The notes under the pieces: generated by a model | What the model saw: only the letters and a program-made list of their open reading frames with translations | Told to the model about the DNA's origin: nothing | The model's database searches: none | Part shown: positions 9,855 to 58,900 of the stretch, in pieces | Numbering within the stretch: position 1 is the first letter of the stretch | Layout: every line of letters starts with the position of its first letter | Made by a program: the position numbers and the translations under genes | NCBI GenBank assembly: GCA_020429915.1 | Contig: JAGQKV010000005.1 | Span: forward strand, 7,125 to 71,124 | Direction of reading: 5' to 3' | Length of the DNA stretch: 64,000 nucleotides | DNA from: Candidatus Omnitrophota bacterium | GTDB taxonomy: Bacteria; Omnitrophota; Gorgyraeia; Zapsychrales; Zapsychraceae

Positions 9855-9859
9855 ACGGG

Positions 9860-14512: not shown

Positions 14513-14519
14513 TTCCAAG

Positions 14520-16062
<1,543 letters not shown>

Positions 16063-25154: not shown

Positions 25155-25220
25155 GGCCTTATTGTTATATTGTATACTTGATTTGGTCATAATTAAGAGT
25201 TGTGTAAATGGGGATTGCCT

Positions 25221-31720: not shown

Positions 31721-31763
31721 GGTGTAATCAACCTTCTTGTCTGATCCGTCCGCCGCACCGCGC

Positions 31764-33164: not shown

Positions 33165-33197
33165 GGTCAGGTCCTCCCGGACCGCCCGCACGCCATG

Positions 33198-36100: not shown

Positions 36101-36518
36101 CGATTTTTTCCATCGCTTCTCGAAAGCACTGGCGGTCTTCCGCTTTCTTGATGACATCATAGTCGGCCCCGAGCATCTGCACATCATACTTTTCCAGGAC
36201 CTTGGCCTCATACAGCTTCATCGCAATGTTAAGCGCCGTCTGTCCGCCCAACGTCGGCAGGATCGCGTCCGGGCGTTCCTTGTCGATGATATATTCGACG
36301 TATTCCGGAGTGAGCGGCTCGACATAAGTGCGGTCCGCGAATTCCGGATCGGTCATGATCGTCGCCGGATTGGAATTCACCAGGACAATTTCATAACCTT
36401 CCTCACGTAATGCTTTACACGCTTGTGTGCCTGAATAGTCGAACTCGCACGCCTGACCAATAACAATCGGCCCCGAGCCCAATAACAAAATCTTCTGAAT
36501 ATCGGTTCGTTTAGGCAT
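33198..36518 (-). CDS. carB: Carbamoyl-phosphate synthase large subunit
   Basis: 1106 aa with duplicated ATP-grasp halves and an MGS-like C-terminal domain. Confidence 0.95.
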
Positions 36519-37620
36519 TCGCTGTTTCCATCATATTAATAAAGTGCTTAAACAAATACTGGGCATCATGCGGGCCCGGCGCGGCCTCCGGGTGATGTTG
36601 AATAGACAGGATCGGCAACTTCTTGTGGCGTAGCCCTTCCAAGGTCTGGTCATTCAGGTTCACATCGATCATCTCGATATCATGCGCCTTCAGACTGTCG
36701 AGGTCCACACAAAATCCATGATTCTGCGACGTAATTCCGATCCGTTCGTCGAGCAGGTCCTTTACGGGATGATTGGCGCCGTGATGGCCGAATTTAAGCT
36801 TGTACGTCTGTCCGCCCAAGGCCAACCCTAACATCTGATGCCCCAAGCAGATACCGAATGTGGGCAGTTTGCCGGCCAATTCTTTCAGGGTCGCTACGAC
36901 ATACGTCACCGCCGCCGGGTCGCCCGGACCGTTGGAGACAAACAGACCGTCGGGTTCGACGGCCAGGATCTCTTCGGCCGTGGCCGAGGCGGGAAATACA
37001 TGGACCTCGCAGTCCAGATCGTTGAGAATTCGCAGAATATTAAACTTGATCCCGCAATCCAGCGCGGCGACCGTGTACTTCTTATCGGTCTTCCCGGCCT
37101 TCCGGCCCTTGGGCCAAATATATTTTTTCTTGGTGGTGACCTTGCTCACCCAGTCGGCACCGATCATCGACGGTACGGCATCGATTTTCTTCTGGAGGCT
37201 GGCGGAGTCAAAATCCGTCGTGGAGATGATCGCCTTCATCGCGCCCTGCTCCCGCAGATGACGGGTCAGCGCGCGGGTATCGATCCCCTCGATCGCCATG
37301 ATTTTATTTTCGTCGAGATAGTCAATGAGGCTCTGTGTGGCCCGGTAATTGGAGTGGTGACGGCAGAATTCCTTGACCACAAACCCCTTCACATGGACCT
37401 TGTCGGATTCCACGTCTTCGTCGTTGACGCCGTAATTGCCGATCAACGGATAGGTCATGATCACGATCTGCCCTGCATAAGACGGATCCGTCAGGACTTC
37501 CTGATAGCCGCTCATAGCGGTGTTGAATACCGCTTCACCAGCACTTTCCCCCTGCTGGGACAACGACCGGCCGATAAAGCTCGTCCCGTCTTCTAAATAG
37601 AGTATCGCTCGGCTGCTCAT
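36511..37620 (-). CDS. carA: Carbamoyl-phosphate synthase small subunit
   Basis: Start at the internal Met [19 protein letters not shown].... There is a GATase class I domain (GICLGHQ) and the catalytic His near the C-terminus. It overlaps the carB start by 8 nt. Confidence 0.9.
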
Positions 37621-37678
37621 ACTAATTTTGATTGATTTGAGGAAATCGGGTAGGACTGCGGCTCCCGCAGCCTGGCTA

Positions 37679-37706
37679 ACTATATCATCCTGGAAAGGAA
37701 AGTCAA
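37679..37706 (-). promoter_or_regulatory. sigma70-like promoter upstream of carA
   Basis: On the minus strand, -35 TTGACT (rc of 37701-37706), a 16-nt spacer and -10 TATAGT (rc of 37679-37684). The leader contains the hairpin GGCUGCGGGAGCCGCAGUCC. Confidence 0.45.
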
Positions 37707-37791
37707 GCAGTAATGTCCGGTGATATCGGCTCATTTTCGGCCGATTCGCCTCGACGCCCGGCCGGGCGAATACGCTCCGGAATTGGACATC

Positions 37792-37908: not shown

Positions 37909-40900
37909 TTAATCCACAATGATAACCGCGCCGCGTAACGGGCCGAAGATCCAGTGCGGTTCGGCCTCGGGACGGTCGGTATTGCCGGCATCCACGGAAT
38001 TGCCGGTGACGATATTGTTGGAGGACGCCTGCGAATCGCGGACATTGACGAAACCGACATTTTGTTCCGCCCCCGTCACATCCACTGTGAAACGGGTGCC
38101 CGTGGTCGAAGAACGGATGTTCAAACGGTTTGATCCGTTGAACCCGTCCAGAGTGAGCGTTCCGGCCACGGTGAGTGTCGACTGCTGACCGACCGTCAGG
38201 GTCCGGGCGGGGCCGGCGCTCAGCGTCTTGTCAAGACTGTAGAACGTCTCGGAGGCCGGGATCTCCTGATCGGCTCCATCCAGGACCACAGTGCCGCTGC
38301 GGGCCGCGAAGACCCCGCCGAAGTTCTCCCAATTGCCGCCGACATTGATCTGATAGTCGTTTCCGGCACTGACATCCAAGGTTCCGGCATTGAGCCGCAG
38401 CGTGCCGTTGACATCCAGCGCGGTTTGCAGGGTGTACGTGCCCACCGCGGTGGCCGGCATGTTGCCGTTGGCTAAAGCCTGGATTTCCGCGGTCGACAGT
38501 AACCGGTTATACATACGCACGTCGTCAATCAGCCCGTCAAACAATTCCGTCGGGAACGAGGCATTGGAACCGATCCGCACGTCGGTCACCGGAATATCCG
38601 TTACGGTCCCTCCGGTGGAACTGCCGCCGGTGACATCCGTACCGTTCACGTATATGGAGAACCTGTTCGCCGCCGATTGGGAAGCGTCATAGGTGACCAC
38701 CACATGCGTCCACACATCCTCAGTCACCACGGACTCGGCCTCGGTTACAATGCGATTGGCTCCTTGCGTGTAAAACCAAACAGAAATACCATCGGTAACC
38801 GATCCGCCGGGCAAGTCACCGCTTGAAACGGTATGGGTATAGAAATAGAAATAATTGTTCCCTCCCGCGGTTTGACTCCACAGCGTCGGCCACCCGCCGT
38901 TCGCGGTCAGGTCCTGGGTTAGGAACCACAGCGACCACGAATAGTCGTGGGAAATGTCAAAATCAAACACCGGATTATCGTCGATAGCCACATAGTCGCT
39001 GCTGCCGTCAAATTCGAGGCTCGCGGCATCCGCGAAGGCAATGGACCCGGAAATATCCGTGCTGGATGTCGGTGTTCCGGCCCATTCTCCATGATTACCG
39101 TAGCCGGACAAATCGCAGGCATCATCGAAAGTGGCGGCTGCGTTACAAACGCTGTTGGAATCCTCGGCTGTTTCATCGAGATTCCAGTAGCCGATCAACC
39201 CGTCATTGATGATCAAATCGTTGAAGATCGTGCCGCCCGTCGAGTCGATGGTCTCCGTTCCGGTCCCCGTAAACATTACCGCTCCCGATGAATGCGTAAA
39301 CGTACCGCCGGCGTGATCGAAGGAGGCGTCCAGTTCGGTGGTGTCGCTTGAAGCCGTGTAAACACCCGTCGTGATTGTGAGATTCCCGTCATGACGGAAG
39401 CGGTTGGTCGTTCCCGTAAACCGGCCGCCGGTCACGGTCGTGTCGCCGATAACAGCAACCGGTTCGATGATCGTGCTGTCGGCATAAGTCAGTGATCCTA
39501 AACTGATATCCAAACCATTGGTTACCGGGATATCATCCTGTAAGACCCAACCTCCATTCGGATTGCCCGCGGCAATATCGACGGCATAGAATGTTTGGGA
39601 ACCGGACAGGATTTCATTGTCGGGCGCTGAACTGTCGAAGACGACGATACCGCTATTCGGCGCAAATATCCCCCCGTTGTTTAACCAGCTCAATGCCACG
39701 TTGATCTGGCGATCGGCACCGGTATCAAGCGTGCCATCGTTGATCGACAAGCTGCCGTTGACGTCCAGATTATCCTGCAGGGTGTAGGTGCCCAGGCCGG
39801 TGCCCGGCATATATCCGTCGGCTATGCGCGCAATCTCGGCGGCCGACAACGCGCGGCTGTAGACGCGGACCTCATCGATACGGCCGTCGAAATCGCGGTT
39901 AAGATCACTGGCGCGCATACCGATACGCACCGTGTCGGTATAAGCATCGATACTCGAACCGGCTTGCGTATCCGATCCGGCCGCCCGTCCGTTGACGTAG
40001 AACGTGGCCACGTCCGTCGCGTCCTCCCATACAACAGCGACATGCTGCCACTCGCCAAGATCCACAACTTGATCATTAGAGGAGAACGTATAGTTGGTGC
40101 TGCTTCCCTCGAGTTGCAGAACCAGTCCCTCGTTCGGTTGGCCGCCGGAGTTGAGGTCGGAAATGTGGAACACCCATCCTCCTTCGTCGTTAAGCCCGCC
40201 GCCTTTGTCGACGATACGACCCTGAACACTCTGCCCCCAGGTATCCGGATAAATCCAGGCCGCTATGGTAATTCCGGCCGCCGTATCCAGATCCAACACA
40301 TCCGAATCGGCTATTTCGATATAGTCATTATTTCCATCCAGTTCGGCCGCTCCCGGATTATTGAAATTGATGGTGCCGTTAACCGACACGTTAACCGACA
40401 CGTCATTGACCCAGGTTCCGTCATGACCATACCCGGAGTAATCCACCGCCGGCGAGGCCGACTCATCCAATTTCCAGTATCCTACCAGTCCGTTGTTGAT
40501 CGCCAAATCATTAAAGGACTTGGTATCCGCCGTCACGGTCAGACTGCCGGTCGTTCCGGTCAGCACCACACTCGATCCCGTACTGGTAAAGACCCCTCCC
40601 GTCATATCCCAGATGCCGCCGACCGCGATGACGGTACGGCCGCCGGAACCGGAGGCGGCGTTCAGAGTTCCGTTAATATCCATGGTCCCGCTTAAGAAGA
40701 CGTCATAACCATCCGTGACCAAAGCATCCGTCGACATAATCTTCATCGACGTACCGGTCAGGTTGGTTGTGAGCGTAGTCATGTCGGGTGACTGACCGAC
40801 CACGATCCAGCCGACATCCTGCTGCGGCGATGTGTTGTCCGCGTAGGTGAGATCGCCGTCGAATGTCAACGTTCCGGCATCCGACTTGAGGAAGACCGTA

Positions 40901-43900
40901 CCCGCATCGAGGATGAAGTTGCCGGCAACGTTGAGATCGGAACTGTTTTGGTCGAATGTTCCGGCCTGCAGATTAAATGTGCCGTTTACGTCGAGATCAA
41001 CAAACGTCCGAAAGATGGTGCCGTCATTATCGAAGTTGACATTGTAGTAAACCGCGCCCAGCACCGGAATAGTATTGTCGTCGTCACGACCGGTGTATTC
41101 AACGATATTGCCGGTGGTGGCAAAATTGACCGTACCCAAGGCTGTGAAGCCTTCTCCGCCGAGATACAGGGTTCCTTCGTTTACGAACGTGGCGCCCGAA
41201 TTGACGGTCAATGTGGCGAGCGTCCCTCCGATAGTGAGCTGATCATCCGCCCCCATAACAAAGTACCCGCCGTTGTCGACCAACAGCGAACCGACCACCG
41301 TGGTGATGTTGGCGTCTTCATCATCCAGGGTGGTCACGACTCCGTTAGCGGTGTCCGCGTCGCGGTTCTGATTGTCGACCGTGAGAATGCCGTTGCCGGA
41401 ACCCTGAACGGCGGTCTCGGTATAGACGGTCCCCGCCGCGCCGTAGTCGGTGGCGATACCGATACCGCCGTAGGCATGCATGGTCCCGGTAAAGCTCATC
41501 AGATCGGCCGAAGTTCCGGTCAAGATAACGGCGATACGTCCGCCCCCTCCGCCGGCGCGTCCCTGGGCGGATCCGTCTCCCCCGTCGGCGTCAAAGGCCC
41601 CTGCCCCGGTAAGATATCCGGTGGTCAGATAAATGCTTCCGCCGGAACCCGCAGCGGCCGTAAAGTCCAGGTTCTCCTCGCCGACCGCGCTCATCGTCCC
41701 TTCGAGGGTCGTCGTGCCGGTGACCGTCAGGATGATGGCCCCGCCCCCGCTTCCGAGTTCATGCATTCCGGAGTCATCCAATGTCCCGCTACCGATATTT
41801 ACGGGCGCGGTGATCGATCCGTAGGTGGTACACGTATTCGTCTTCGGACTATGGTCCCCGCCGCAGCCGCCGTAGGACCCGCCGTCGCGCGCGGTCGTCG
41901 GGACACCCGGCCCGAACGAACTTTCATAACCCATATAATCCACATTGATCTCACCGCCGCTCTGAACAGTCAGGCTCCCGGTAATCGTCAGGTTCAATGT
42001 ATATGTTTCCGCCTCCCGGTTCATGGTGTGCGACAACCGCCCGCCGGAGGCCACCGTCCAATGACCGGTCACCGCTGATACGCCGTCCGGATGCAACGTG
42101 TAATTCGAGATCGTATAGGCGGCCGGGAAGGTGACGAGGGTGTCGTCGATAATCGTCACATAGGATTCGGATGCCCCCGATCCGGTAATCGTATCGTTGG
42201 TAAAATCATATGTATCGTCCGCACCGATGGCCAGGTGTCCGTTGTTGCGGATAACGATTTCGGCAAAGCTGTCCAGATTGACCGACGTCGGCATCAGCGT
42301 CGTGACCTCCGCGTAGGCATCGGCGCCGTCATTATCGATAATCAACGTTCCGCCGCCGGCGATGACGGCCTCCGTTTCCAGATAAACCGTACCGGCCGCG
42401 CCGTCTTCATGCTGACCGTCGGTGGACTTGCCGCCGAACGCGTTCATCGTACCGGTCCAGCTCATGAAATCGGCGCCGCTCGCCGTCAGCACCGCGGCGA
42501 TACGACCCCCGCCACCGGAACCGCGTCCGGTAATGCCACTACCGCCGTTGGCCGTCAAGGTTCCGGTACCGGTCAGTTGTCCGGCAGTAATAAAGATACT
42601 ACCGCCTGAACCGGACCCGTCACTGCCGTCTACCCCGTCGGCCGCGATCGTCCCGTCAATTGTTGCCGTGCCGGCCACTTCGAGGATAACCGCCCCCCCG
42701 CCGGAACTTCCCGTGGCGATGATGCCGCCGCCGCTTCCGATATTGACAGGTGCCGTGATCGAACCGTACACACTGGTGTTGGCCTCGCCACCCATATTGT
42801 AATCCCCGCCACTGCCGCCGTAGGCGCCGCCGACACGGCTGCCGGCCGGTTGACCCGGTCCCTGATTGGTATCATAACCCAGCCCGGAGACGTCAATCAT
42901 GGCCAGTGATCCCAGGTTGAAGTCGCCGTCGACCAGCATGATAAACCTGTTTGTTTCGGCGGTGCTGTTGTCCAGATGCCGCAATGTCCCCGTGACGAAG
43001 AAGGCATCACCCGACAGGCCCGTAGAGTCGTCCACTTCCATGGTGCCGGTGAGCACGATCGTTCCGGTGAATCCGGTCTGGGTTTCAATTTCCCCGATCG
43101 TCAAGGTTCCGGACGGCGTGTCGATGATGTGGCCGCTCGACATGAAGAACGCCTTGTCGGTCGCGTCATCCGGATAACCGTCATCCCCGGCCGAACCGTC
43201 TCCGAAGTCCCAGTTCAGTTCATCTTCCCATGTGGCCTGATCGGAAGCCCCGGTCCACTCGTAAATGCTGCCGAAGCTGAACACAAAATGCGGCGCCGCC
43301 TCCATTGAGTCGTTATTGCTGTTGTCGATGGAATTTGCGGCCAGGATATCATTGCTCAAGGCCTCGCCGTCGCTGACGTCCAGCCACATAACCCGTTCAT
43401 CACCGAGCTGAACATCCAGGTTCCACCGTGTTCCCGGCACGGAGCTGACCAGGTTGACGCGGTCGTCGGAATCGATACCGGCCACGGTCAGATTGTTTTG
43501 GACAGCGAACGTGCTGCCGGCCTCCAAGGTTATCACCGAGTCCGTCGCGTTATTGGTCGTTTCGACCTTGCTCAGATTATAGAATGTCGTGGAACCGACC
43601 AGGCTTTGCGTCGTTCCGTCGAGCGCGAAGGTGCCGCTTTGCGCGGTGAAGGTGTCGTTGTTGATCCAGTTGCCGGCCAGATTGATATCATAGTTGGCGG
43701 CGGAGACATCCAAATCCCCGCCGGCGATCGTAAGATCATTGTTGACATCCAGAGCCGAATACAATTCAAAGGTCGTGCCGCCGCCCGGCGTATCGTCCAC
43801 AATCAGGTTGTAGAATGTTTGCAGCTCCTGAACCCCTACCGTTCCGGACTGGGCGTCCATGGTCACGGAGCCGGACTGTTCATCAAAGACCCCGCCGTGA

Positions 43901-46900
43901 TTGAGCCAGAAACCGCCGACATCGATCGCACGGTTCGCGCCGGCATCCAGCTCCCCGCTGTTGATAATCAATGTCCCGTCAACGTCCAAGTCGGCTTGAA
44001 GCGTGTACGCGCCAACCGCCGCGGCCGGCGTGGACCCCGCAGCCAAAGCCGCTATTTCCGTTGAGGACAGGGCCCGGTTGTAAATACGAACTTCATCAAT
44101 GGCGCCGTCAAAGTCGCGCGTATTGGAATTCTCATGCCGTCCGATTGCCAACGGTTCAATGGAATCCGTTAGGGCTCCGGAGGCAGCCGTCGGTCCGGCG
44201 GTCAACGTTCCATCCTGATAAAGACGGACGCTGCTCCCGTTCCACGTGCCGGCCACATGCACCCATCCGTCCGCGGTTGTTACCGGATTACCGGTAATTT
44301 GTACCTGGGCACCGCCGACATGTATCCGGAAGATCATCGCCAGCGTTGAAGCCCGGTGGATAAGCGCGTAATCATCCGCGGTGCCACCATCGGACTTATG
44401 AATGATGCGGCCCCAACCGGTTCCCGGTGCGCCGTCAACACGCACCCATGCCGCGAGCGTCAGCTCCGTCAGATCCGACAACTCGCGACTTCGCGGAATC
44501 AGGACGTAATCGGTCGTCGCCCCGAAGTCCAAGGCCTGCGGATCGCGGAACTGGATCGCGGAACTCACGGATGACGTGGCTGCCGGCGTTCCCTGCCATG
44601 TTCCATGATTGCCGTACCCGCTGGAGTCGATAGACGTCGAACCGGAGGCCTCATCGAGCTTCCAGTACCCGATCAAACCGTCATTGACGATCACATCATC
44701 GAACACGGCCCCGCCGGTTACATCAATTCCGTGGTTGTCCGTGCCGGTAAACATCACCGTGGAGCTGCTGTTGGTAAAGGTGCCGCCGCTGTGCGTGAAG
44801 GTCCCGTCGATCTCCAGAACATCGGTCGGCGCGGTGTATTGTCCGGAACTGATCGTAAGATCGCCGTCGTGGCGGAAGCGCCGTGCGTTTCCGGTAAACG
44901 TACCGCCGGTCAATGTCGTGTTGCCGACGATCGCGACCGGTTCGATGGTGGTGTCCGTACTGTAGGTCAACACGCCCGCGCTGATGTCAAAAACATTGCT
45001 GACCGGGGCATTGTCCTGCAGGGACCATGTCCCGCTGGTCGTCACATCAACATTATAGAAGGTCTGCGAACCGGACAGGATTAATCCGACCGACGGGCCC
45101 CCGTCAAACAGGACATCGCCGTTATTGGCGGTAAACTTACCGCCGTTATTCATCCAACTGTCGGCGATCGTGATGTCCCGGTCGGAACCGGTATCCAACT
45201 CGCCGGAGTTAATGGTTAACGTACCGTTGATGTCGAGATCATCCTGTAATGTATATGTCCCTGCGGATGTCGCCGGCTGATAACCATTGGCCATGGCGCG
45301 AACTTCCGCAGCCGACAAGGCACGATTGTAAATACGCACCTCATCGATCTCACCCTGGAAGCTGTTGCCGCTACCGCCGCCGCCGATACCGAGGAAGGAC
45401 GGCCCGTCGATCGGCGTCCCCGTCACACTGCTACTTAAGGCTTCCTGGGTGCCGTTGACATAAATACGCTTCGTATTGGCCGCGTCATCGAACACCGCGG
45501 CCACGTGATACCATCGGTTAGCAGTAATAACAGCGGCGGTATCCGTTGATACCGTACTGACACTGCGAATAAAGAACCGCAACGCTCCGGCGCCGGGATC
45601 ACCCAGGGAGACCGCCCAGCCGTTGCTGCCGTTATCCTTGATCACGATCCGGCGACCGGCGGTAGCGATATCCTGCGCATACATCCAGAACGACACCGAG
45701 AAGCTGGTGGTCTGATCAAGCACATCCCCCATATTGATACTGTCACCGGTCCCGTCGAAGGTCACGCTGCGCGGATTCGTAAAGGTGATGGTCTCAGCCA
45801 CATTCGTATCGGCCGTCGCATTGCCGCCCCAGGCGCCGTCGTATCCGTATCCGGAGGAATCACACGCGTCGTTGGTGCCTCCGGAACAGGTGTCGGCCGC
45901 GGCCTCATCGAGTTTCCAATATCCTACCAATCCGTCATTGAGCGTTACATTGTTAAAGGCATTGGCATTGGAGGTAATCGTCGCCGACGCGGAGGTGCCG
46001 GTGAAGAGCACCGTAGAGTCCGTAGCCGTGAAGACCCCGCCGGTGGCATCCCAGTTACCGCCCACAACGGCCGTGACCGCGCCGTCCGTACCGCTGCCTA
46101 TATCCAAGGTGCCGTTGATATCGACATTGCTGCCGATGGTCAATTCATAACCGTCGGCATCAAATGTCCCATCCGCCACGGCCAGTGAACCGTTAATGTA
46201 CAGATCGCTGACCGTCCGCACGGTGTAATCTCCGCCGGCGTTTCCGTCATTCACAGTCAGGTTGTAGAACGAATTGCTGCCCATGGTGATGGTCGCCGTT
46301 CCGGTCGTCCCGTCAAAAATGACGGTCGAGACGGACTCAGTAAAGATACCGCCGGAAGAATCCCACGGCCCGCCAAGCGTAATGGTGGTCGCCGCGTCCG
46401 TACCGCTGGTGGCATTAAGCGTACCGTTGATCGTTACAGTACCGGCGATATCCACTTCATAACCGTCGGTGATAAGGGCATCGCCCGTGTCAACGGTCAA
46501 CGTGGTAGCGCTCATGTCCGTGGTCAAAGTGGTGGTATCCGGTGACGACCCGATGACCAGCCGCCCGAGATCCTGTAGCGGGCTGGTGTTGTCAGCAAAG
46601 TACAGGTCGCCGTCAAAGGTCAGAGTACCGCTGCCGGTCGGCTTGGTAAAGGTGGTCCCGGAAGCCAAAGTAAAGTTGCCTGCGACGTTCATGTTGTTAT
46701 TGCCCTGGACAAAGAACCCGTCATCCAAATTGAACGAACCGTTAATGTCCAGAGCCGCCGTGTTGGTGAAAGTTGTTCCGGCATTGTCCGCGCGTAAATT
46801 GTAGTAGACACGATCGAGGATACTGACCCCAGCGTCATCATCCTGTCCGATATAAACCACATCGCTGCCGGTGGTGCTGAAAGAAATGTCGGTTAGATCG

Positions 46901-49900: not shown

Positions 49901-52900
49901 ATTTTGACGTCGTAGTTCGTACCCAAAGTATCGGCATCAGCCCCCGAGCCATCTGGCATCCCGTTCAGATAGAAACGGACCGTCGTGCGATCGTAGGTAA
50001 CAGCCACATGATACCATTGCCCCGCGGATAAGGCGGTACTCGCTTGTATTTCTGCGGAAGTGGCATCGGTCCGGAATCCCCAATTCCCGCCGGCCCCGCC
50101 ATTGTATGTACTGGCCATAAATCGCCAATTTGTCTGATTGCCCGTGCTATTGGACCGGGTTACGATAATTTCCTCAGGATCAGCCGCTCCGTCGATATAA
50201 ATCCAAGCCATGATCGTAATCGTATCGGTTATCGCCAACGAGTCGGTCGCCCCGCAATTCAAATAATCGCCGTCAGCGTTGTCGAAGTCCAAACTTCCTG
50301 GATCAGTAAATGAAACCTCCGGAACTTCCGTGCTGGCAGTGGGACTATTTATCCAAGTACAATCATTATCGTAACCGCTATAATCGAAGGACGGCGAAAC
50401 AGACTCCGTCATTTTCCAGTAGCCCACCAGCCCGTCATTAATTATAACGTTGTGGAAACTCGTTCCTGCACTTGTATCAATTTGTCCTCCCGTCACCGTA
50501 CCGGTGAACATAACGGTCGATGTGCTGTGGGTGAACGTACCGGCAGAATGCACAAAAGATCCGGTTATCTCCAGGACATCCGTCGGCGCCGTGTACGTGC
50601 CGGCCTGGATCAACAGGTTACCGGCATGACGAAAACGGTTGGCCGTACCGGTAAACGTCCCGGCGCCTCCGCCGGTCGTAATCCGGTAAGTTCCTTCAAT
50701 AGTAACCGGTTCGATATTGGTATCGTCCGAATAAGTCAGTACACCGTCACGGCTGTCAAATATGGTGGTTATCGGGAAGTTGTCTTGCAGCGTCCATGTC
50801 CCGGCACCGTTGATCTCGGCATCATAGAAAGTTTGTGATCCGGAGAGGATCAGCGATCCGGTACCGGCACCGTCAAAGATAACATTGCCGCTGTTGGCCA
50901 CAAACGCCCCGCCGTAATTGAGCCAACTGCCGCCGACATTGACATCCCGGTCGGCACCCGTATCCAAGGCCCCGCTGTAAAACTGCAACGTTCCGTTCAC
51001 ATCCAAATTATCCTGCAATGTGTAGGTCCCCAGCGCGGAACCGGGCATGGTGCCGGCTGCCAGCAATCGTATTTCCGCGGCGGACAAGGCACGGTGATAC
51101 AGGCGCACTTCATCGATATAGCCGCCAAAATAAACGGCATTAGTGGAACTGTTGAATGTGCTTGCCTCGGAGCCATCCCCGATAAACCCGTATCTGGTCG
51201 TCCCCGTTCCCAGAGCGGTCCCAAGCGCAAAGGCATTGCTGGATTCGGCCACACCGTCTATGTAGATAATGGAGTCATTTGTAACTGTGGCATCATACAC
51301 CCCACAAACATGATGCCATTGATCATCGTTTACAGCGGAAGCGGAACATTGATCATTGACAGTCGCTCCACTGTCGGCAACGGACCACTGCACCTCTCCG
51401 TTGGCGCAAGATGTGAAGTTGATACTCAATGAGAAGTATTCGCTGCGGTCGAAGTCGATGATAGCCCCATCAGTATCCGTCGTTCGGATCCAGGCACAGG
51501 CCGTTACAGCCTCCAATTGCCCGACCTGATCGTAATTCAGATCCCGAATCGCAATATAATCAGTTCCGTCCAGGAAGATACTGCGCCGGTTATCGTATCC
51601 GATATTTTCGGCGACGGTGGTCGTCGGCGTGGGAGAACTGCTCCAGAACCCGTCGTATCCGTTTTTCGTAAGATCACAAGAGTCGTCTACACCGCCGCTG
51701 CAGGTGTTGCCCGCACTTTCTTCGAAGCGCCAGTATCCGACAAGCCCGTCATTGAATATCACATCATTAAAAGAGCTACCGTTAGACGTGATGGTTTCAT
51801 TTTCGGTAGACGTAAAAATCAATGTTCCGGTAGATGTAAATGTACCGCCGGTGGCATCCCACAACCCTCCCACCTTGACATCACCGCTTTGCATCGTGAA
51901 GGTGTCGTTGATATCCACATCATCGAGCGTAAGTTGTTTGTCGTCATCGGTAATGGCCGTTCCGTTGGCGATCGTCATGGTCGAAGTGACCGTAACCGCG
52001 GTATCCGGGAAAGTCCACGTGCCGCCGGCATTGTCGAAGGTCAAGCGGTAGTAGCCGGTGATATCGGCCGTCAATGTGCTCGTGACCGCGCCGTCATATA
52101 TCGCCAACCCGCCGATTGCCTGTGGGGTCAGGATAGAAATCGTCTCATCACCTTGGGCGATGAACGTCCCGTCGGTATCAAACGACCCTTCCAGATCCAG
52201 GTTATTCGCGTTGAGGTCCAAGGTCTTCGACAACAGGAGCCCGCCATCCACATCCAAAGTCTGCGCCATGGTCCAGCGGCCGGACACCGGATCCTGCGCT
52301 CCGGCAGCCAAGGCCTGGATTTCCTCCATCGACAATACGCGGTTGTAAATCCGGACATCATCGATAGACCCGTTCCACGCCCCTGAAGTACACGATGCGG
52401 AGTTGCAGCCGATGGCGAAGTCGTCGGTCACGGAGATGTCTTCGACCGACGAGTCTTCCGTAATATCGACCGTAGTTCCGTCGACAATAATAAAGTGATG
52501 CGTCGGCGTCCGGCCGGCCGCGATATGGTGCCAGGCCCCGTCCATCACCGTGGCGCTGGTGGCCGTATCGGTGATCGCACTGGTTTCATCAATCCGCAGG
52601 AAGAATCCTCCGCCCGAGGTATAGCGTATCTGATATCCGTTGGTAGAACGTTTATCGACAACCTTCTGCGCGTTAGTGGTATCCGAACCCTTGACCCAAA
52701 CGGAAATGGTAAAGTATTCGTTGACCCCAAAGTCGAGTTCACCTCCGCTTGGATCACCAACGTTCACCGTGGAAGTGGTTCCGTTAAAGGCATAGGCGAG
52801 CGGATCGGTGAAGCTGATTGCGCCCGGCACGGAGGCATCGGCAGCGATATTTGCCGTCGTTCCATGATTGCCATAACCGCTGCTGTCCAAGGCGGTGGCG

Positions 52901-55900
52901 GCGACTTCATCCAGCTTCCAGTATCCGACCAATCCGTCGTTGAGACTGACATTGTTAAAGACGGTGCCACCGGAGAAGTCGGGCGCTACGGAGGTCGTTC
53001 CAGCCCACACCCAAGTTCCGCCGTTATTAGTAAATGTCCCGCCGGTGTGGTTCATGGTTTCCGTCAGAACGTAATTGGTAGACGGCGCGGTGAAGGCCCC
53101 TGAAGAGATCGAGAGCTGACCGTCATGGCGGACGTCATTGGCCACCCCAGTGAAAGTCCCGCCATCCACGCTCAGACTTCCGGTCAGCAGAATCGGCAAT
53201 GGGCTGGTCGCGGTCGTCAGGGTTCCGGCGCTGATATTTCCTTCGTTATTGACGTCGATGGCGTCGTAGAGTGTCCACGTACCGCTGCCGGTTTGCTGCC
53301 ACGTGTCAAAGGCCATTGTGCCGGTTTGTATGACAAGCCCCGTCCCTGTTCCGTCCATGGTCACGGTATTGTTGTTCGTGGTGTATATACCGCCATTGTT
53401 CAACCAGCTCCCCGCGACATTGATGTTACGGTCGGATCCCGTATCGAGTTCCCCGGCATTGATAGACAGTGTTCCGTTGATGTCGAGATCATCCTGCAAC
53501 GTAAATGTTCCGGCCGCAACCTGCGGCAGGTGTCCGTTGGCCAGCCGGCGGATCTCGGCGTAAGACAGCGCCCGGTTGTAAACACGCGCCTCATCGATGT
53601 GTCCGTCCCAAAAATCATTAACTGTCGTAAAACAGCCCGCGTCCGAATCGGCTCCGATCAGCAACGGACATCCGGTAAAGCTCATCGCGACCCCGTCGGT
53701 TCCCGTCGAGGCATCAAGCACGCCGTTGATGTAGATTCTAATCGTGCTGCCCGACCGGGTCACTGCAACATGATTCCATGTGACACCGTCAGTGGTGATG
53801 GTTTGGGCAGATGTCACCCGTGAGACATTGTTGGTGTGGACAACTATCTGATTCGATGCGTTCGCCAGAATAACAAATTCGTTGTTACCGGAAGTGTCGG
53901 CATTCATGAAGATCATATCGTTGGCCGTGGCTGTATCGTGGATAACCCAAGCACTATAGGTAAAGTCTCCGGTAGGTGTATTGAACCCGGTGGCACGAAC
54001 ATATTCATTGGACCCGTTGAAATCCATACTCCGTAGACTGGTAAATCTTAACCGCGGTGGAACCACTGTGGATGGCGTGGGGGTGTTGATTTGCGTTCCA
54101 TCATATCCATACCCGCTAAAATCGTATGAGGTCGTACCGGATGTCTCATCGAATTTCCAGTATCCTGTCAAACCGTCATTCAGATACAGGTCGTTAAACG
54201 CATTGCCGTTAGACGTAATGGTCGCCGTCCCGCTAGAGGACATGATCACACTGCCCGTAGACGGAGTGAATGTTCCGCCGGTAGCATCCCAGTTCCCTCC
54301 GACCCGAATTTCACCGGCGGCCATGGTCAGCGTATCTTGAATGACCATATCATTGGAAACGGTCAGAATCTTGTCGTCGTCATTCGTCACGATCGCGTCG
54401 GCGATCGTCAGCGACCCATTGACAGTCAGATCGATATCCGGCAGCGTGAAGGTCGGATCGGACGTGCCTTCTTCGTCAAAGGTCAAATCATAGTAAGTGC
54501 TGAGCGTGGCATTGATGGTCACACTGGAGGTGCCGTCATACATGACCAAACCGGAATCGGAATCAAAGGTCCCGATTTCAAATCCTTCGGAGCCTTGCAT
54601 ACGCAAAGTCCCGTCATTGCTCAGAATTCCGTTGAGATCGAGCGTCTGGCCGTTGAGGTCCAACGTCGACCCGTTATTGATGGTCAACTGGGTGTCGACC
54701 TCCAGCTCGGTGTTGATCATCTGCAGGAAGCTGTTGTTGGTAATAACCAGGTTCGGAAAGTCGCGGGTGCTGTCATTAATAGCTGTACCCGTCCCGCCGG
54801 CGTCGATCGTCTGTACCGCACCGCCCTGGAAGGTGACAGTACCGACCATACCGAAGGATCCGGTATTCTCCCAGTTACCGTCGACTGAAATGGTGTAATT
54901 TGAGACATTCAACGTCCCCTCGATGTCCAGCGAATGCGTCTCGATGGCTCCCTGGCTGATATAAGTCTGATTCATCGGAACAAGCATTTCGATCCCCGAA
55001 CCGACCTGCAATGTATTTCCGGCGGTGACCGTGAAGATATCGGTGATATCGGTGTCGCCGTTGTCATCTCCATCGGCCATCAGCGTATTGGAATTGAAGC
55101 CCATGTTGTCGCTGCGCACGATGAGATATCCCGCGTATATGTCCACATTGGATATATCCTCATCCGAGGCGATAGTGACCGTCGCACCCTGGCTGGCTTC
55201 GTCATCGATATATAGCGTCAGCGTGTCCCCGGCATTCATCATCAACCCGGTCAAACTGTAAGTTCCGCTTCCGTCGGTATCATCGGTCGCGGCGGCGGCG
55301 GCTCCATCGATGGAGATGGCGACGGTAATGCCCGCCCCGATATTGGTCGATCCTTCGTCGGTGAATACCGTTCCGGAAATATTGACGGTCGGCGTGGTAA
55401 ACAACCATTCGGTGTTGTTGCCGGAATTCACACAGTTATTGGTACAATCGATTTCCGTGGCATTCACGTTCCAGGAATCGGTGACATCCAGATAAGAGAC
55501 GCTGCGCGTTCCCTGCGGATTAATTTCCCACTGAATGAGGCTGATTTCCGTTCCCCGCAGCGTCAGCAGCTGTCCGGCCGCGCCGTTCATGGTCATCGCG
55601 CCGGTAATGATCTGTCTTTCCATCGTTTCAAAGGTGAATGTGGCAGCCGTCGTAACGTTCTTGCGGAAATTGTTAAAGGTCGTCGAATCATAGATCGTCT
55701 GATCGCCGCCATCGAAGTCGATGGTTCCGGTCGCCGTATACGTACCGCCGGGACGCATCCAGTTTCCAGCCAGCAGGATGCTGTTACCGCCGTCGGCCAC
55801 GGTCCCACTTTCGATGGTGATCGTGCCGTTGACATCCATGTCGCTGCCGGCCGTCCACGTTCCGGAGCCGATGAATTCCAGATTGTAATATTCATCATCC

Positions 55901-58900
55901 AGCGCCCAATCCGAATATGTTCCGGACCCGTCGTAGCGGGTCAAACCGCTGTCGCTGTCCATATTGGTAATCGACACCGTCTGACCGCCTTCCAACCGGA
56001 TGACGTCGTCGTTGCTGACGGTGCCCGTCACGGTCAAGTCGTTGTCCACCAGATCGAACGTCCCGTTGACCACGAACAGATCGCCGCTGAGCGATTCATT
56101 GGCCGTTAAGTTGAAGTCTTCCCCGTACCCATTCTCGGTCAGATGATCACCGGCAGCCAGCTCGGCAATCTCGGTTGCGGATAGCGCCCGGCTGTAAATA
56201 CGGACATCGTCTATTTGACCATCGAAGTAATTGTTTTCAGATCCTGAACATGTTGCCCCGGACCAACCGGCAAATATATAATTGGCCCCGCCGCTGGCGG
56301 AGAATGTGGCTTGCGCCGTGCTGTCTTCCAACACACCATTGACGTAAACGGTCAGCCCGTTGACCGGATCCCATGTCGTGGCGATGTGATACCATTGACC
56401 CGCATTGAGCGTCGTCGTTCCATCCGCCTGAACAGCTCCCGGCGCCCAGCTGTGCGCCTCAATTTGGCTGCTATCCAAAGTGAGCATGGAAACACACCAT
56501 CCACCGGTTCCCGCCGACAATAAGGAGGCGTGGATAATGGTTCCGTCGGTTTCTCCCGAATCCCGGTTTATCCACGCCGATATCGTATACGGCTGATTGG
56601 ATGTTCCCAGTTCATTGAAACCGGCGGCCTTGGTGTAGTCGTCCGTACCGTCAAAATCAAAGCTGCGCGTATTGTTAAAGCTGGTTGTGGGCACACTGGC
56701 CGACGGTTGCGGATAGGTATTGGCCCCGCCGGTGCCGTAGGGGAACATGTGCCGGGCGTATTGAGAGCTGCTGTAGTTCATACCGCCGGACGTGGTTTCA
56801 TCATATTTCCAGTACCCCACCAGATGGTCGGAGGCGACACGCAGGTCATCGTATCCCCAGTCGTTGATAGTGTAGGGACCGGACGTCCCGTTGTACGACA
56901 CGGTTGATCCGCTGTTAAGCGTCGGGGCCGAAGATGTCTCGCCGCCTTCGAGCTGATACACCCCGCCGTCTTCAACGGTGAAGCTGTTGCCGCTAAAGCT
57001 CAGGTTGTTGCCGCTGATATCGAATGTCCCTTCAATGATCGTAAAGTCTTGACCGGCCGCGTCCAACGTGAGGGCCGATTGCAAGTGGACCGAACCCCCG
57101 GTCTTATTGACATCGATATCAATATTGATGCCGCCGGTGGCCCCGGAAAGATTAAATCCTTGGACCATGGCCCCGTCAAACAGCAGCGTCGCGCTTCCGC
57201 CGTAACCGGTATCCGTACTGACCACCATACCGCCGGCCGCGACGGTTCCGGAATTGATATTCCCGACCGTAGTCAAAGTCAGGGTGCCGTTGACGTCCAG
57301 CGTGCCGCTCACCGTCACATCGAGTGTGGCTGTATTGAAAGTCACGTTGGCAAACGATATCGTGCCCGAGGCGACGGTAAGCGCGTCCGTCCAGATGACC
57401 GTACTCGTGCCGGCGTCCACGTTGCCCGCGGTATAGGTCCACCCCCCGCCGTCGACATTGATATTGTCCTGGATCGTCAGCGTGCCGGAAGTCTTGTTGA
57501 TCTCAACGCCCGGCACCTCGCCCGTTGCGCCGTTGGCACTCAAGGTCTGCGCCCCGGTGCCGTCGAACAGGATCAGACTCGTTCCGCCCGCAGTGGTGTC
57601 CACCGTGATCACGTTACCGCTAATGGCGATCGGACCGGAGTTGATATCATTGACCGAATTGATCGTCAATGTCCCGGCAATATCCATCGTGCCGCTGACG
57701 GTCAGGTCACCCGCCGCACCGGTATTGATGTTGACATCGTTGAAGGTCATACTGCCGCCGGTCACGGTGGCCGTGGCAGTAAAGATCACCGTACTTGTGC
57801 CGGCATCCACGGTTCCCGCCATATAGGTCCAGCCGCCGGTATCGATATTGATATTGTCCTGAATCGTCAATGTGCCGGACGCCTTGTCGACTTCAAAGCC
57901 GGGCAGCTCCCCGGTCCCGCCGCCGGCACTGAGGGTCTGGGCGCCGGGGCCATCGGCGATGATCGTGCTTGTACCGCCGGCCGTGGTGTCGGTCGTGATG
58001 ATGTTTCCGGCCACCGTTACCGCACTGCTATTGATGTTGCTCACCGAGGTAATGCTCAACGTTCCGGCGACGTCCATCGTGCCGCTGACCGTAATGTTAT
58101 TTGTTCCGCCGGCCGCCACCGTAACGTCATTAAAGCTCATAGATCCGGCCGAAACCGTAGAGACATTAGTCAATACGACCGTACTTGTACCCGCGTCTAC
58201 CGTCCCCATGTTGTACGTCCAGCCGCCGGTGTCAATGTTAATGGTGTCCTGGATCGTCAACGTACCGCCGGATTTGTCGACAATGACCCCGGGCAGCTCC
58301 CCGGTCCCGCCGGCGGCATCGAGCACCTGCGCCCCGCCGCCGTCAAAGGCAATAAGACCATCCCCGCTGATGGTCGTGTCGGTGGTGGTCACGTTGGTGG
58401 CCACGGCAATGTCTCCGCCATTCAAATTCGCCAACAGCGTGATCGCAAGGTCACCTTCCACGTCCATTGTCCCGGTAATATTCAGATCATCTGCCGCCGC
58501 CTCCATGGTGATATCCACATCGTTGAACATCATCGCTCCGGAGTCGACCGTCGACGTATCGGTGAAGACGACTTTGCTGGTACCGGCATCCACCGTCCCC
58601 GCGGTGTAAGTCCAGCCGGCATCGTCGATATTAATGGTCCCCAGGATCGTCAAAGTACCCCCGCCTTTGTTGATGCTGACACCGGTCACCTCACCGGTTC
58701 CGCCGTTCGACGTTAATGACTGAGCCCCGCCGCCGTCGAAATACACCACGGCCGCCCCCGTGATGGCGGCATCGGTGGTCACGACATTTCCGGCAACGGC
58801 TAAAGTACCGGTGGTCATCACGGCCGTGTTGGTCAGCGTCAGCGTGCCGTTGATATCCATCGTTCCGCTGACATCGAATGTGTCATCGGTTTGGCTGACC

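Follow-up and report, generated by a model that had tools for sequence, protein, structure and literature searches.

A 26-kb gene on the minus strand of a Candidatus Omnitrophota bacterium encodes a very acidic, all-beta, Sec-exported giant protein, which is probably an extracellular or cell-surface adhesin built as a five-module scaffold bearing nine swappable LamG domains. We infer its location beyond the inner membrane, the type of its ligands and its role in adhesion.

Organization of the giant gene

The gene occupies positions 37909..64000 (minus strand) of the window, the whole stretch of 64,000 nucleotides that was analysed, and its 5′ end is cut by the window edge. The listed open reading frame (37909..63846) encodes 8,645 residues; the frame has no in-frame stop up to base 64000 and comprises 8,696 codons inside the window. 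The full product has 8,723 residues, and its N-terminus has been recovered from P0145, which matches the window at 100% identity where the two overlap. On public contigs the protein is called at 8,712 or 8,723 residues. Aspartate and glutamate make up 11.7% of the protein, versus 2.7% for lysine and arginine, and cysteine 0.3%. About 75% of the protein is without Pfam or NCBIfam annotation.

Mis-assembly is common for repetitive genes, and one Logan contig has a frameshift in a G5 run. However, the alternative that the giant reading frame is an artefact, either a mis-assembled repeat array or a decaying pseudogene, is effectively refuted: the frame stays open over 26 kb, exact internal nucleotide repeats reach no more than 29 nt, and several independent ENA and Logan assemblies contain the sequence with 100% identity. 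The gene is under purifying selection, with a between-strain dN/dS of 0.05–0.2, and is therefore real.

Two features mark the termini of the protein:
63979..63999, minus strand: end of the signal peptide, GSAWALA (last seven residues); the 27 residues before them fall beyond the window edge and are known from P0145.
37912..37959, minus strand: extreme C-terminal tag PHWIFGPLRGAVIIVD-COOH, kept in stand-alone and long homologues.

The predicted Sec-type signal peptide is 34 residues long (MKKLLLTIWNDVLRSLLVAVIATGLFAGSAWALA, followed by C), with the cleavage site placed according to the A-L-A motif. The body of the protein contains no strongly hydrophobic, transmembrane-like stretch (maximum Kyte-Doolittle value 1.47 in 19-residue windows). 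The unannotated C-terminal tag, with the consensus PHWIFGPLRGAVxxVD, recurs in the family: it is present in L039, P0289, P0298, P0265, P0252, P0028, P0309, P0323, P0012 and a 359-residue protein of L046, and matches none of the known sorting-domain models. A search of the 38 kb downstream and 1 kb upstream of the gene revealed no genes for a secretion system. Its neighbours in the window are housekeeping genes, no phage context was found there, and a DsbA-like gene is present. Assignment to Omnitrophota is supported by CarB, which is identical to that of MAGs of this phylum.

Nine LamG domains

The presence of nine Laminin_G_3-type domains on one giant gene, proposed in a preliminary description, has been confirmed with the Pfam model PF13385 and an HMM built from seven of the copies. 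PF13385 matches four stretches in the first 4,333 residues (E=3.4e-90) and six in the last 4,812 (E=9.7e-147); because one domain is common to both overlapping protein pieces, the total is nine. The HMM yields nine strong domains and no more (i-Evalue 4e-40 to 8e-95) at 56838..38461 on the minus strand, in agreement with the span of 38461-56826 given previously:
56146..56838, minus strand: D1, residues 2337-2567, divergent entry motif SDHLVGYWKYDE, HMM i-Evalue 3.7e-40 and Pfam match.
53530..54189, minus strand: D2, residues 3220-3439, HMM i-Evalue 3.4e-48.
52297..52950, minus strand: D3, residues 3633-3850, HMM i-Evalue 1.5e-77.
51049..51762, minus strand: D4, residues 4029-4266, Cys-pair loop TCSGGVDDSC (C4049/C4057, 51676-51702).
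49789..50448, minus strand: D5, residues 4467-4686, HMM i-Evalue 9.4e-87.
45280..45948, minus strand: D6, residues 5967-6189, Cys-pair loop TCSGGTNDAC (C5987/C5995, 45862-45888).
44032..44694, minus strand: D7, residues 6385-6605, from the HMM.
39811..40506, minus strand: D8, residues 7781-8012, from the HMM.
38461..39216, minus strand: D9, residues 8211-8462, Cys-pair loop CNAAATFDDAC (C8234/C8244, 39115-39147).

The residue patterns proposed for these domains hold in part. The entry pattern is exact in seven of the nine, the exceptions being D8 (N-N-G-L) and D1 (S-D-H-L-V-G-Y-W-K-Y-D-E); the exit pattern is exact in six, with D2, D3 and D6 deviating at 1-3 positions. All nine share the core W-x-H-[VI]-x, although the residue classes first listed omit N (D2), T (D9) and C (D4). 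The extra cysteine pair directly after the entry motif is indeed present in D4, D6 and D9. Another strain retains it in its orthologous cassette, and the window includes the DsbA-like gene; these domains may plausibly represent a disulfide sub-variant of LamG. The start-to-start spacings from D2 to D5 (413, 396 and 438 residues) and from D6 to D7 (418) are as described. A spacing of 430 residues, said to occur twice, separates D8 from D9, but that from D9 to the C-terminus is 432.

Across 28 sequences, residues D211, Y216, L220 and E224 are invariant, and L7, R214, R218 and S221 nearly so. The key exit-motif residues and the W/H core are conserved in homologues from other phyla, and therefore are not peculiar to the giant gene; the entry (GYWxLDE) and exit (IDEVRxYNRxLSxxEI) motifs are likewise largely conserved there. 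This conservation concerns the amino-acid sequence; codon identity shows no excess. Judging from the fold, the two motifs may be structural staples closing the jelly roll, which would make each LamG a self-contained plug-in domain.

The nine domains are only 26-39% identical to one another and no nearer to one another than to LamG domains of other phyla, and Patescibacteria are the source of the closest sequences for several of them. By contrast, the scaffolds flanking the LamG domains within the protein are 57-61% identical. Because of this divergence, multi-specificity is favoured over the high-avidity binding of one ligand proposed earlier. Each domain would have a different predicted binding surface; the putative targets are polymers, or glycans or envelope proteins on other cells, either hosts or prey.

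Fold of the LamG domains and their spacers

The ConA-like, Laminin_G_3 jelly-roll identity of the domains is corroborated by Pfam, PDB matches, AlphaFold and Foldseek. The AlphaFold model of one cassette, around D8, consists of a jelly roll followed by a beta-solenoid (pLDDT 82). The PDB profile search identified 4qvs, a LamG domain (E=1e-24), and the PDB sequence search also matches pentraxins, AbnA carbohydrate-binding domain 4 and neurotoxin HcN. Foldseek matches of the cassette model include 5hon (TM-score 0.75) and clostridial Hc lectin-like domains, and all are accounted for by the LamG part. The model and the PDB sequence and fold matches, together with the best Pfam stretches, which cover positions 1-150 and 3-151 of the 151-position model, exclude a low-complexity artefact as the source of the shared motifs. 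Enzymes and toxins can contain LamG_3 domains as well, so a function cannot be read from the fold alone. The top Foldseek matches are botulinum and tetanus Hc domains, and the sequence search includes PMP1 Hc and BoNT/X, as would suit the receptor-binding component of a toxin or of an effector delivery protein, with LamG used as clostridial neurotoxins use their lectin-like HcN domain. However, such a function is very improbable: the likeness, at 12-21% identity, is that of the general ConA-like fold, the protein has no toxin, protease or translocation domain anywhere, and its C-terminus has its homologues in the internal terminators and at the ends of small stand-alone relatives.

A conserved beta-solenoid module of ~190 residues follows each LamG domain. 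The spacers are of two types, with paralogues 44-60% identical for type a and 47-61% for type b:
39217..39810, minus strand: type-a beta-solenoid spacer S8, ~8 coils of three short strands, pLDDT mostly 80-95.
52951-53529, minus strand: S2, paralogue of S8.
50449-51048, minus strand: S4, paralogue of S8.
44695-45279, minus strand: S6, paralogue of S8.
49012..49788, minus strand: type-b 'terminator' spacer S5, from sequence comparison with S7 and S9.
43252-44031, minus strand: S7, paralogue of S5.
37912-38460, minus strand: S9 (C-terminal tail), paralogue of S5.

The S8-type spacer has no Pfam or NCBIfam match, and its profile finds 5,059 representative proteins. AlphaFold of residues 4941-5966 gave a pLDDT of 43; the sequence repeats suggest that the long spacers are beta-solenoids. 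Repeats and composition are consistent with a continuous fibre, of which the cassette around D8 alone is confidently modelled. The nine LamG domains are inserted along the scaffold, most of them as LamG-Sa-LamG-Sb pairs.

Solenoids of this kind could be catalytic, lyase- or glycosidase-like, as in pectate lyases and phage tailspikes. The protein would then be a secreted polysaccharide-degrading fibre, with LamG domains serving as carbohydrate-binding modules that direct the degrading solenoids to prey cell walls or EPS. Among ligand-bound structures, the nearest neighbour is carbohydrate-binding domain 4 of the arabinanase AbnA, cell-wall adhesion and degradation have been argued for giant Omnitrophota proteins (10.1101/2023.11.21.568195), and the large unannotated share of the protein speaks in the same direction. 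Nevertheless, a degrading fibre is unlikely: searches of the halves (E<=0.01) and spacers (E<=1) gave no GH, PL or Beta_helix/pectate-lyase match in Pfam or NCBIfam, the Foldseek matches are all explained by LamG, and no CAZyme genes adjoin the giant gene.

Modules and proposed fusion origin

The preliminary description attributed the repeats to unit-wise duplication of a LamG-plus-beta-helix cassette. Such a cassette exists; however, its history is not one of simple duplication, and the clearest signal is the duplication and fusion of whole modules of ~1.1-1.9 kAA. Each duplicated module carries a LamG-Sa-LamG-Sb pair and closes with a 'terminator', and fossil junctions are visible between the modules:
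61699..63978, minus strand: M1, mature N-terminus to residue 716, no LamG, terminator ...STDSGNNTNWLF.
59305..61698, minus strand: M2, residues 717-1514, paralogue of M1 (604-1000 versus 1402-1798, 65% identity).
49027..59304, minus strand: M3, residues 1515-4940, D1-D5, fossil terminator ...TPHWIISPGD.
43267..49026, minus strand: M4, residues 4941-6860, D6 and D7, start IYEWT..W..NWDFGD, end ...APHFVFSFGS.
37912..43266, minus strand: M5, residues 6861-8645, D8 and D9, true C-terminus.

M1 is a beta-strand repeat region with a period of ~131-133 residues (self-BLAST offsets 131, 133 and 798). Its homologues are named 'beta strand repeat-containing protein', some being T9SS cargo, and among those of the N-terminal repeats are surface proteins sorted by T9SS and proteins with the name adhesin. 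M4 and the matching part of M5 share 55% identity.

The stand-alone proteins P0289 and P0298, each of ~1.1 kAA with two LamG domains, its own signal peptide and the C-terminal tag of the giant protein, are collinear with the last ~1,040 residues of M5 (43% identity). They are encoded in tandem at the syntenic HTH...carA-carB-purF locus (HTH denoting a regulator gene) of a related genome (GCA_020049755.1, contig JAHZTO010007078.1), the CarA and CarB of which are 82% and 83% identical to those in the window. Because the related genome has two separate two-LamG proteins at this locus, in-frame fusion is suggested: the five concatenated modules resemble former stand-alone proteins, which suggests that the giant gene is a fusion of smaller tandem genes.

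Exchange of LamG cassettes

The evidence for exchange comes from four comparator sequences: a contig from Logan, a partial protein from NCBI and two further proteins. Between relatives, scaffolds are 54-100% identical, whereas most LamG cores are ~30% identical. In L039, D8 and D9 are swapped in position: D8 is 71% identical to position 9 and D9 56% identical to position 8, which are the nearest matches of each, versus 37% and 45% at the same positions, despite scaffolds 85-97% identical. P0279 has a counterpart of D8 at the same position (68-69%), and an unrelated LamG core (31%) replaces D9 between scaffolds 77-79% identical. D7 has a 64%-identical cassette in the terminal module of P0252. 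The D8/D9 swap is not an assembly artefact, because L039 has no exact repeat of >=14 nt and the arrangement in the window is 100% replicated in independent assemblies.

The breakpoints of exchange lie inside the entry and exit motifs. Between related genomes, the segment bounded by these motifs is exchanged or replaced within a retained scaffold, so the LamG cores act as swappable cassettes for recognition. An elevated dN/dS, envisaged earlier for ligand-binding loops, is not observed at whole-domain resolution, where omega is 0.09-0.20 with saturated dS and there is no signal of positive selection. LamG variation arises by cassette replacement, which may be of adaptive value. No invertase or retroelement that could serve as a swap mechanism was found in the window.

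Replacement also bears on the idea that the protein serves as a structural coat, or an S-layer-like part of the envelope, that surrounds the ultra-small cell for protection or spacing; LamG would then mediate self-assembly or anchor to glycans of the same cell. In the PDB sequence search the top match, 4qvs, is the LamG domain of an 'S-layer domain-containing protein', and the conserved C-terminal tag could serve anchoring. However, self-assembly interfaces should co-evolve and stay conserved, whereas LamG cores are replaced from strain to strain; the protein has no SLH or other anchoring domain, and S-layer proteins are usually highly expressed, whereas the 64-kb window holds one gene copy. 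A coat function is thus quite unlikely, and an adhesin with exchangeable recognition domains is preferred.

Comparison with known systems

Phage tail fibres and bacterial polymorphic adhesins swap highly divergent receptor-binding domains on a conserved scaffold, with boundaries in conserved junction motifs. The likeness of the giant protein to them is one of analogy only; the fold differs.

Giant Laminin_G_3 ORFs have already been published for Omnitrophota, and the present gene belongs among them. Passages of Seymour et al. 2023 (PMC10066038) propose giant Omnitrophota ORFs with laminin_G_3 as adhesins, and those of bioRxiv 10.64898/2026.06.07.730766 describe a 'tandem-repeat scaffold' class with up to 36 copies of PF13385 in long Omnitrophota proteins. 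As described in these passages, the published giants share with the present gene the phylum, an ORF of >20 kb, multiple PF13385 domains and few other annotated domains; many of them have many transmembrane helices, whereas the present protein has a signal peptide and none. The module-fusion origin, LamG cassette exchange and C-terminal tag are newly seen here and are not reported in the passages of PMC10066038 and 10.64898/2026.06.07.730766.

The Archaeovorin-/Dockerin-type giants (10.1101/2023.11.21.568195) are also giant, beta-rich and largely unannotated and have carbohydrate-binding-module-like regions; a role in prey adhesion is proposed for them. By contrast, dockerin, TSP3 and SecA-DEAD domains are missing from the present protein, as are transmembrane regions, and at 8.7 kAA it is much smaller than these proteins of 30-85 kAA. 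Nanohaloarchaeota SVXNc proteins have up to five LamG domains and are proposed to recognize host cells (PMC10266531). Such DPANN/CPR multi-LamG proteins are similarly secreted or exposed at the surface, belong to ultra-small cells that depend on a host, and carry several ConA-like LamG domains; however, they come from other lineages and scaffolds, are much shorter, and have no described beta-solenoid cassette. P0289 and P0298 share with the giant protein the syntenic locus, the style of signal peptide, the LamG-Sa-LamG-Sb order and the C-terminal tag, but are two separate ~1.1-kAA genes versus one fused 8.7-kAA gene, with LamG cores only ~30-40% identical to any of the nine.

The giant gene and its product

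The giant minus-strand gene remains free of stop codons as far as the right edge of the window and is therefore cut off by it. The gene has a length of 26.2 kb, exceeding 20 kb in an Omnitrophota genome, and its product is called at 8,712 or 8,723 residues on public contigs bearing an identical adjoining carB. The missing N-terminus is supplied by a 485-residue fragment from another assembly (P0145), which agrees with the window at 100% identity where the two overlap. It reads MKKLLLTIWNDVLRSLLVAVIATGLFAGSAWALA followed by CNDQ..., which is predicted to be a signal peptide of the Sec type; it contains an A-L-A site, and the probable cleavage position precedes CNDQ. In the rest of the protein there is no stretch resembling a membrane helix, the maximum 19-residue Kyte–Doolittle hydropathy being 1.47. 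The protein is rich in G, T, D, A, S, and N and very acidic, with 11.7% D and E against 2.7% K and R, and contains 0.3% Cys.

A run of five G at window positions 62679–62683 reads as four in the Logan assembly L045, where the gene call is broken into pieces of 485 and 1,987 residues as a result. An error in assembly or sequencing probably explains the variant, and the run is too short to support phase variation. Many long open reading frames of up to 555 residues (for example 57049–58716) lie on the plus strand opposite the gene between 39964 and 60159; most likely, this GC-rich and repetitive gene gives rise to them as shadow ORFs.

Nine LamG domains share a fold and differ in their cores

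The preliminary description placed nine LamG_3-type domains at 38461–56826. The Pfam profile PF13385 and our own LamG HMM, trained on seven of the nine copies, both give nine domains, at window positions 56838..38461. Matches of PF13385 are strong in both of the overlapping pieces into which the protein was divided: four stretches in the first 4,333 residues (E = 3.4e-90, 300 bits) and six in the last 4,812 residues (E = 9.7e-147, 484 bits), above the gathering threshold of 27.6 bits. One domain is common to both pieces, which results in a total of nine. The best stretches cover positions 1–150 and 3–151 of the 151-position model, and the weaker matches, to Laminin_G_2, Pentaxin, Sialidase N-terminal, and TS_C, all belong to the same ConA-like clan. 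The domain observation is thus confirmed, and the interpretation that accompanied it is partly supported.

Giant open reading frame and LamG domains (domain limits in residues of the 8,645-residue frame, from our own HMM)
37909..63846 of the window, minus strand, giant ORF as listed, 8,645 residues
2337–2567, minus strand, LamG domain D1
3220–3439, minus strand, LamG domain D2
3633–3850, minus strand, LamG domain D3
4029–4266, minus strand, LamG domain D4
4467–4686, minus strand, LamG domain D5
5967–6189, minus strand, LamG domain D6
6385–6605, minus strand, LamG domain D7
7781–8012, minus strand, LamG domain D8
8211–8462, minus strand, LamG domain D9

The conserved first and last stretches of each domain, the entry motif (approximately GYWxLDE) and the exit motif (approximately IDEVRxYNRxLSxxEI), had been called near-invariant. 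The literal entry pattern occurs in seven of the nine domains and the exit pattern in six, with deviations at one to three positions in the remainder. Domain spacings of 413, 396, and 438 residues, of 418, and of 430 are as claimed; however, D9 starts 432 residues, not 430, before the C-terminus. The extra Cys pairs in D4, D6, and D9 are present as described. If they form disulfides, a periplasmic disulfide-forming system would be needed; a DsbA-like thioredoxin-fold protein (PF13462/PF01323) is encoded at window 19177–20055 on the minus strand.

A LamG-plus-spacer profile of the nine units matches solved structures over the LamG part only, best the LamG domain of an S-layer-domain protein (4qvs, E = 1e-24), followed by domain 4 of the arabinanase AbnA, pentraxins, a sialidase lectin domain, and clostridial neurotoxin Hc. 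The AlphaFold model of one cassette, D8 with its spacer (28-sequence alignment, mean pLDDT 82), contains a jelly roll at residues 1–216, a short helix at 222–229, and about eight coils of three short strands at 240–412, which form a predicted β-solenoid. Residues 1–230 of the model are a two-sheet β-sandwich, all-β apart from one C-terminal helix. Foldseek searches of the PDB with the same model find AbnA domain 4 (5hon, TM-score 0.75) and the HcN domains of clostridial neurotoxins. Together, the structure-profile, AlphaFold, and Foldseek matches indicate that the ConA-like assignment is sound and that the cassette of LamG and β-helix proposed previously, both parts of which are seen in the predicted model, is real.

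Across an alignment that includes 19 homologues, drawn from Patescibacteria, Omnitrophota, Chloroflexi, and other groups, the residues W84, W153, D211, Y216, L220, and E224 are invariant, and L7, D22, H155, R214, R218, and S221 nearly so; the exit motif is also seen in the alignment with 4qvs. Because the key residues of the motifs are kept in LamG homologues of other phyla, they are not a mark of this gene. Conservation among the nine copies covers the first ~30 and last ~25 residues and the W-x-H-V stretch, and residues 30–200 are highly variable in strands and loops alike. At sites with identical amino acids, codon identity is 44% in the core and 40% in the exit motif, which thus shows no excess that would suggest gene conversion; the 59% of the entry motif carries no correction for codon degeneracy. 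Therefore, the conservation of the motifs is selected at the protein level and does not reflect recent gene conversion.

The giant protein would be exported, β-rich, and adhesin-like, possibly in the form of a fibre, and each of its nine divergent LamG domains would present a different binding surface. Multivalent high-avidity binding had been suggested for these domains; however, their divergence reads as multi-specificity rather than as avidity for one ligand. The best-supported reading from the sequence is that of a multi-specific adhesin-like exported protein. Readings of the giant protein as an enzyme fibre with CBMs, as a coat protein, or as a toxin receptor binder are less supported.

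Modules, spacers, and the C-terminal tag

Comparison of the giant protein with itself aligns residues 4240–5800 with 6163–7716 at 51–60% identity and residues 604–1000 with 1402–1798 at 65%, and a period of 131–133 residues runs through the first 2,336 residues. The spacers following the LamG domains, numbered accordingly, are of two types: type a (S2, S4, S6, and S8), 44–60% identical, and type b (S5, S7, and the C-terminal tail), 47–61% identical. Type b spacers end with a terminator of the pattern RxNLxSSxPGTRFxLDV...VxDSxxSSNxI...SxDxxNxD...PHW, and two N-terminal blocks close in the same style (...VDVKRSDA...STDSGNNTNWLF). Behind every terminator comes a W..G.G..W....NW...P...D start similar to the mature N-terminus. 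The terminators and the starts behind them indicate that the giant protein consists of five concatenated modules.

Modules and C-terminal tag of the giant protein
Mature N-terminus to residue 716, module M1
Residues 717–1514, module M2
Residues 1515–4940, module M3, with D1–D5
Residues 4941–6860, module M4, with D6–D7
Residues 6861–8645, module M5, with D8–D9
Window 37912–37959 (residues 8630–8645), minus strand, C-terminal tag P[HRQ]W[IV]FGPL[RKM]GA..[IV][DE]-COOH

No Pfam or NCBIfam model matches the scaffold of the giant protein. The spacer profile matches 5,059 representative proteins, 453 of them at E ≤ 1e-30, and many are multi-kAA proteins with 10–45 matched stretches; 33 of the top 149 also contain LamG domains, often paired 390–430 residues apart. 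The ~190-residue β-solenoid spacer is a widespread unannotated repeat family. In the window, such spacers lie at 39217–39810, 44695–45279, 50449–51048, 52951–53529, 49012–49788, and 43252–44031. The AlphaFold model of the long spacer at residues 4941–5966, based on a two-sequence alignment, has a pLDDT of 42.8 and is unusable.

The C-terminal tag PHWIFGPLRGAVxxVD is common to the giant protein, its counterpart on the related-strain contig L039, two stand-alone homologues (P0289 and P0298), three long ones (P0265, P0252, and P0323), and P0028, P0309, and P0012, and occurs at positions 2162, 6752, and 10133 of L046, a contig of assembly GCA_020049755.1 from a related Omnitrophota MAG. It has no match among Pfam and NCBIfam sorting domains and is a candidate for a new secretion or anchoring tag, which could point to the route of export or anchoring of the giant protein.

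Locus and probable gene fusion

Two complete proteins of 1,136 and 1,123 residues (P0289 and P0298) were recovered with the spacer profile. They share a similar long leader, a W...NW start, ~170 residues of helix, the order LamG-Sa-LamG-Sb, and the end ...APHWIFGPLRGAVMTVD, and are collinear with the last ~1,040 residues of the giant protein at 43% identity. Their genes stand in tandem on L046 (3342–10133) in synteny with the locus of the giant gene: an HTH_17-repeat protein (46% identity to its counterpart before the giant gene), P0289, P0298, relB, carA (82%), carB (83%), and purF. The relB-like gene precedes carA on this contig, and a broken LamG gene of 238 and 359 residues lies farther upstream of the HTH gene. 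The inner junctions of the giant protein (...PHWIISPGD joined to IYEWT...) resemble gene ends that lack the last ~11 residues and the signal peptide of the next gene, and internal PHW[IV]F sites occur in other long homologues too, with three in P0311. The synteny and these fossil motifs argue for an origin by fusion, and most likely the giant gene grew by duplication and in-frame fusion of genes for secreted proteins of ~1–2 kAA. The locus is a worked example of a possible origin of giant genes, in which tandem two-LamG genes of ~1.1 kAA near carAB seem to have been fused in frame.

Directly upstream of the giant gene, just past window base 64000, a 240-residue HTH_17 (excisionase/MerR-like) repeat protein is encoded (L045 276–998), the stop codon of which overlaps the start of the giant gene (ATGA). 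Four HTH_17 repeats are visible by eye in the translation, and Pfam reports three stretches. The copy with 46% identity, at L046 2473–3207, precedes the unfused genes, and the protein is possibly a dedicated regulator of the giant gene.

The encoded CarB and CarA have identical counterparts in Candidatus Omnitrophota MAGs. Downstream of the giant gene are housekeeping genes: carA, carB, purF, pyrG, rpe, a two-component pair, pyrimidine genes, and a V-type ATPase. The rest of the window (1494–15999 and 30107–37734) is likewise housekeeping, with V/A-type ATPase subunits, pyrF, pyrD, pyrK, pyrC, pyrB, and a pyrR-like gene; carAB, purF, pyrG, rpe, glmS, and fpg are also present, and a histidine kinase, a GGDEF response regulator, and a FIST protein form a trio at 25200–28871. 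No genes for a secretion system, pilus, or mobile element were found in the rest of the window.

Among GTDB representative genomes there is no close relative of the giant protein, the maximum identity being 35%. A search with its last 1,245 residues, of a type that seemingly returns proteins up to ~1.75 times the query length and never returned the giant protein itself, found no close orthologue besides P0279, a partial Omnitrophota MAG protein. Further strains sought through CarA and CarB cluster members were mostly the same clone again. When JGI metagenomes were scanned with the tail, a single distant locus emerged on the unrelated contig L042, where positions 199–8373 encode a protein of at least 2,724 residues with four LamG domains. 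One of these opens and closes with the motifs described above and precedes a tail-like module (51% identity); the protein ends with a C-terminal transmembrane helix and KKKK, not with the PHWIFGPLRG tag.

Exchange of LamG cores

Paralogous scaffolds within the giant protein are 57–61% identical, and the LamG domains between them 26–39%; six of the nine domains are more similar to a LamG domain of another organism than to any of their paralogues. In the related strain represented by L039, carA has 95.9% nucleotide identity to that of the window and the scaffolds have 85–97% protein identity, and the two terminal LamG domains are in swapped positions. D8 is 71% identical to the second LamG domain of L039 and 37% to the first, and D9, which carries the Cys loop, is 56% identical to the first and 45% to the second. 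In three-way alignments, the breakpoints fall within the two motifs: behind NDGL / GYWxLDE on the entry side and between YxRxLS and EIxxLAxG on the exit side. Most of the longest stretches of nucleotide microhomology shared by LamG copies, of 12–17 nt, are in these motifs.

Other homologues were compared in the same manner. P0279 has scaffolds 77–79% identical to those of the giant protein, a first LamG core at 68%, and a second at 31%, and the terminal module of P0252 has a 64% match to D7. In more distant homologues, the scaffolds are 33–67% and the LamG cores 29–33% identical.

L039 contains no exact repeats of 14 nt or longer, those of the giant gene reach 29 nt at most, and independent assemblies recover the arrangement in the window at 100% identity. 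Therefore, the swap is not a product of mis-assembly. An artefact is a less supported explanation of the giant gene than a multi-specific adhesin-like protein.

Across the eighth and ninth LamG domains, the comparator contig L041 has the same sequence as the window. Its last ~77 residues (window 37912–38142) are instead exactly those of L039, with two differences from the window, so that its 3′ end reads as a small recombinant tract.

Elevated dN/dS, which the preliminary description proposed to test at predicted ligand-binding loops, was not found at the resolution of whole domains: Nei–Gojobori values between the window and L039 are 0.05–0.2 throughout, and dS is saturated in the LamG domains, which leaves positive selection unsupported. 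dS is 0.16 in carA, 0.25 in the tail, and 0.9–1.3 in the scaffolds. The low dN/dS together with the uneven dS indicates that the locus is composed, mosaic-like, of old alleles that are under purifying selection, rather than being a case of simple positive selection.

The best-supported reading of the alignments is that the LamG cores are replaceable recognition parts. As fast-changing exchangeable parts, they are candidates for deciding which cell or polymer is bound. Omnitrophota are ultra-small, uncultured, and probably predatory or parasitic bacteria. A combined account, in which the motifs serve both as staples of the jelly roll and as junctions for the exchange of cassettes among positions, paralogues, and genomes, giants grow by in-frame fusion of tandem genes for secreted proteins, and PHWIFGPLRGAVxxVD is an undescribed sorting tag, is tentative and, as a whole, rather doubtful. 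If true, it would allow Omnitrophota to re-tool the recognition of hosts or prey in a modular manner while the fibre itself is conserved.

Comparison with known systems

Several known types of large surface and secreted proteins are rejected for the giant protein. The Archaeovorin/Dockerin type is rejected by the lack of matches to dockerin PF00404, TSP3 PF18884, and SecA-DEAD PF07517 at E ≤ 0.01, and an RTX/T1SS giant adhesin by the lack of a match to the nonapeptide-repeat model PF00353 and the presence of only four GG.G.D strings in 8,645 residues. No ABC, MFP, or TolC genes were found in the flanks examined (the window and 1 kb upstream). A type V autotransporter is rejected because no C-terminal β-barrel translocator is matched, and an ESPR leader because the likeness is by eye only, with no match to PF13018 at E ≤ 10. 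The sorting domain of T9SS cargo (PF18962 / TIGR04183) is absent from the giant protein; it occurs in Bacteroidota homologues of the N-terminal repeats. A DGR target is rejected because there is no RT among the scanned ORFs of the window and no repeat longer than 29 nt in the giant gene.

At 26.2 kb, the gene is longer than the 20 kb that define Omnitrophota giant ORFs (Seymour 2023). Unlike most of these, though not all, the giant protein has a signal peptide and no multiple transmembrane helices. It fits the class with a signal peptide only, listed at 9% in a 2026 preprint (10.64898/2026.06.07.730766). The adhesin reading agrees with the proposal for Omnitrophota giant ORFs with laminin_G_3 (PMC10066038) and with the PF13385-rich ‘tandem-repeat scaffolds’ of the preprint, and with multi-LamG surface proteins of DPANN symbionts (PMC10266531). 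The giant protein belongs to the known Omnitrophota giants, to which it adds a probable origin by fusion, a putative cassette exchange bounded by motifs, and a candidate C-terminal tag.
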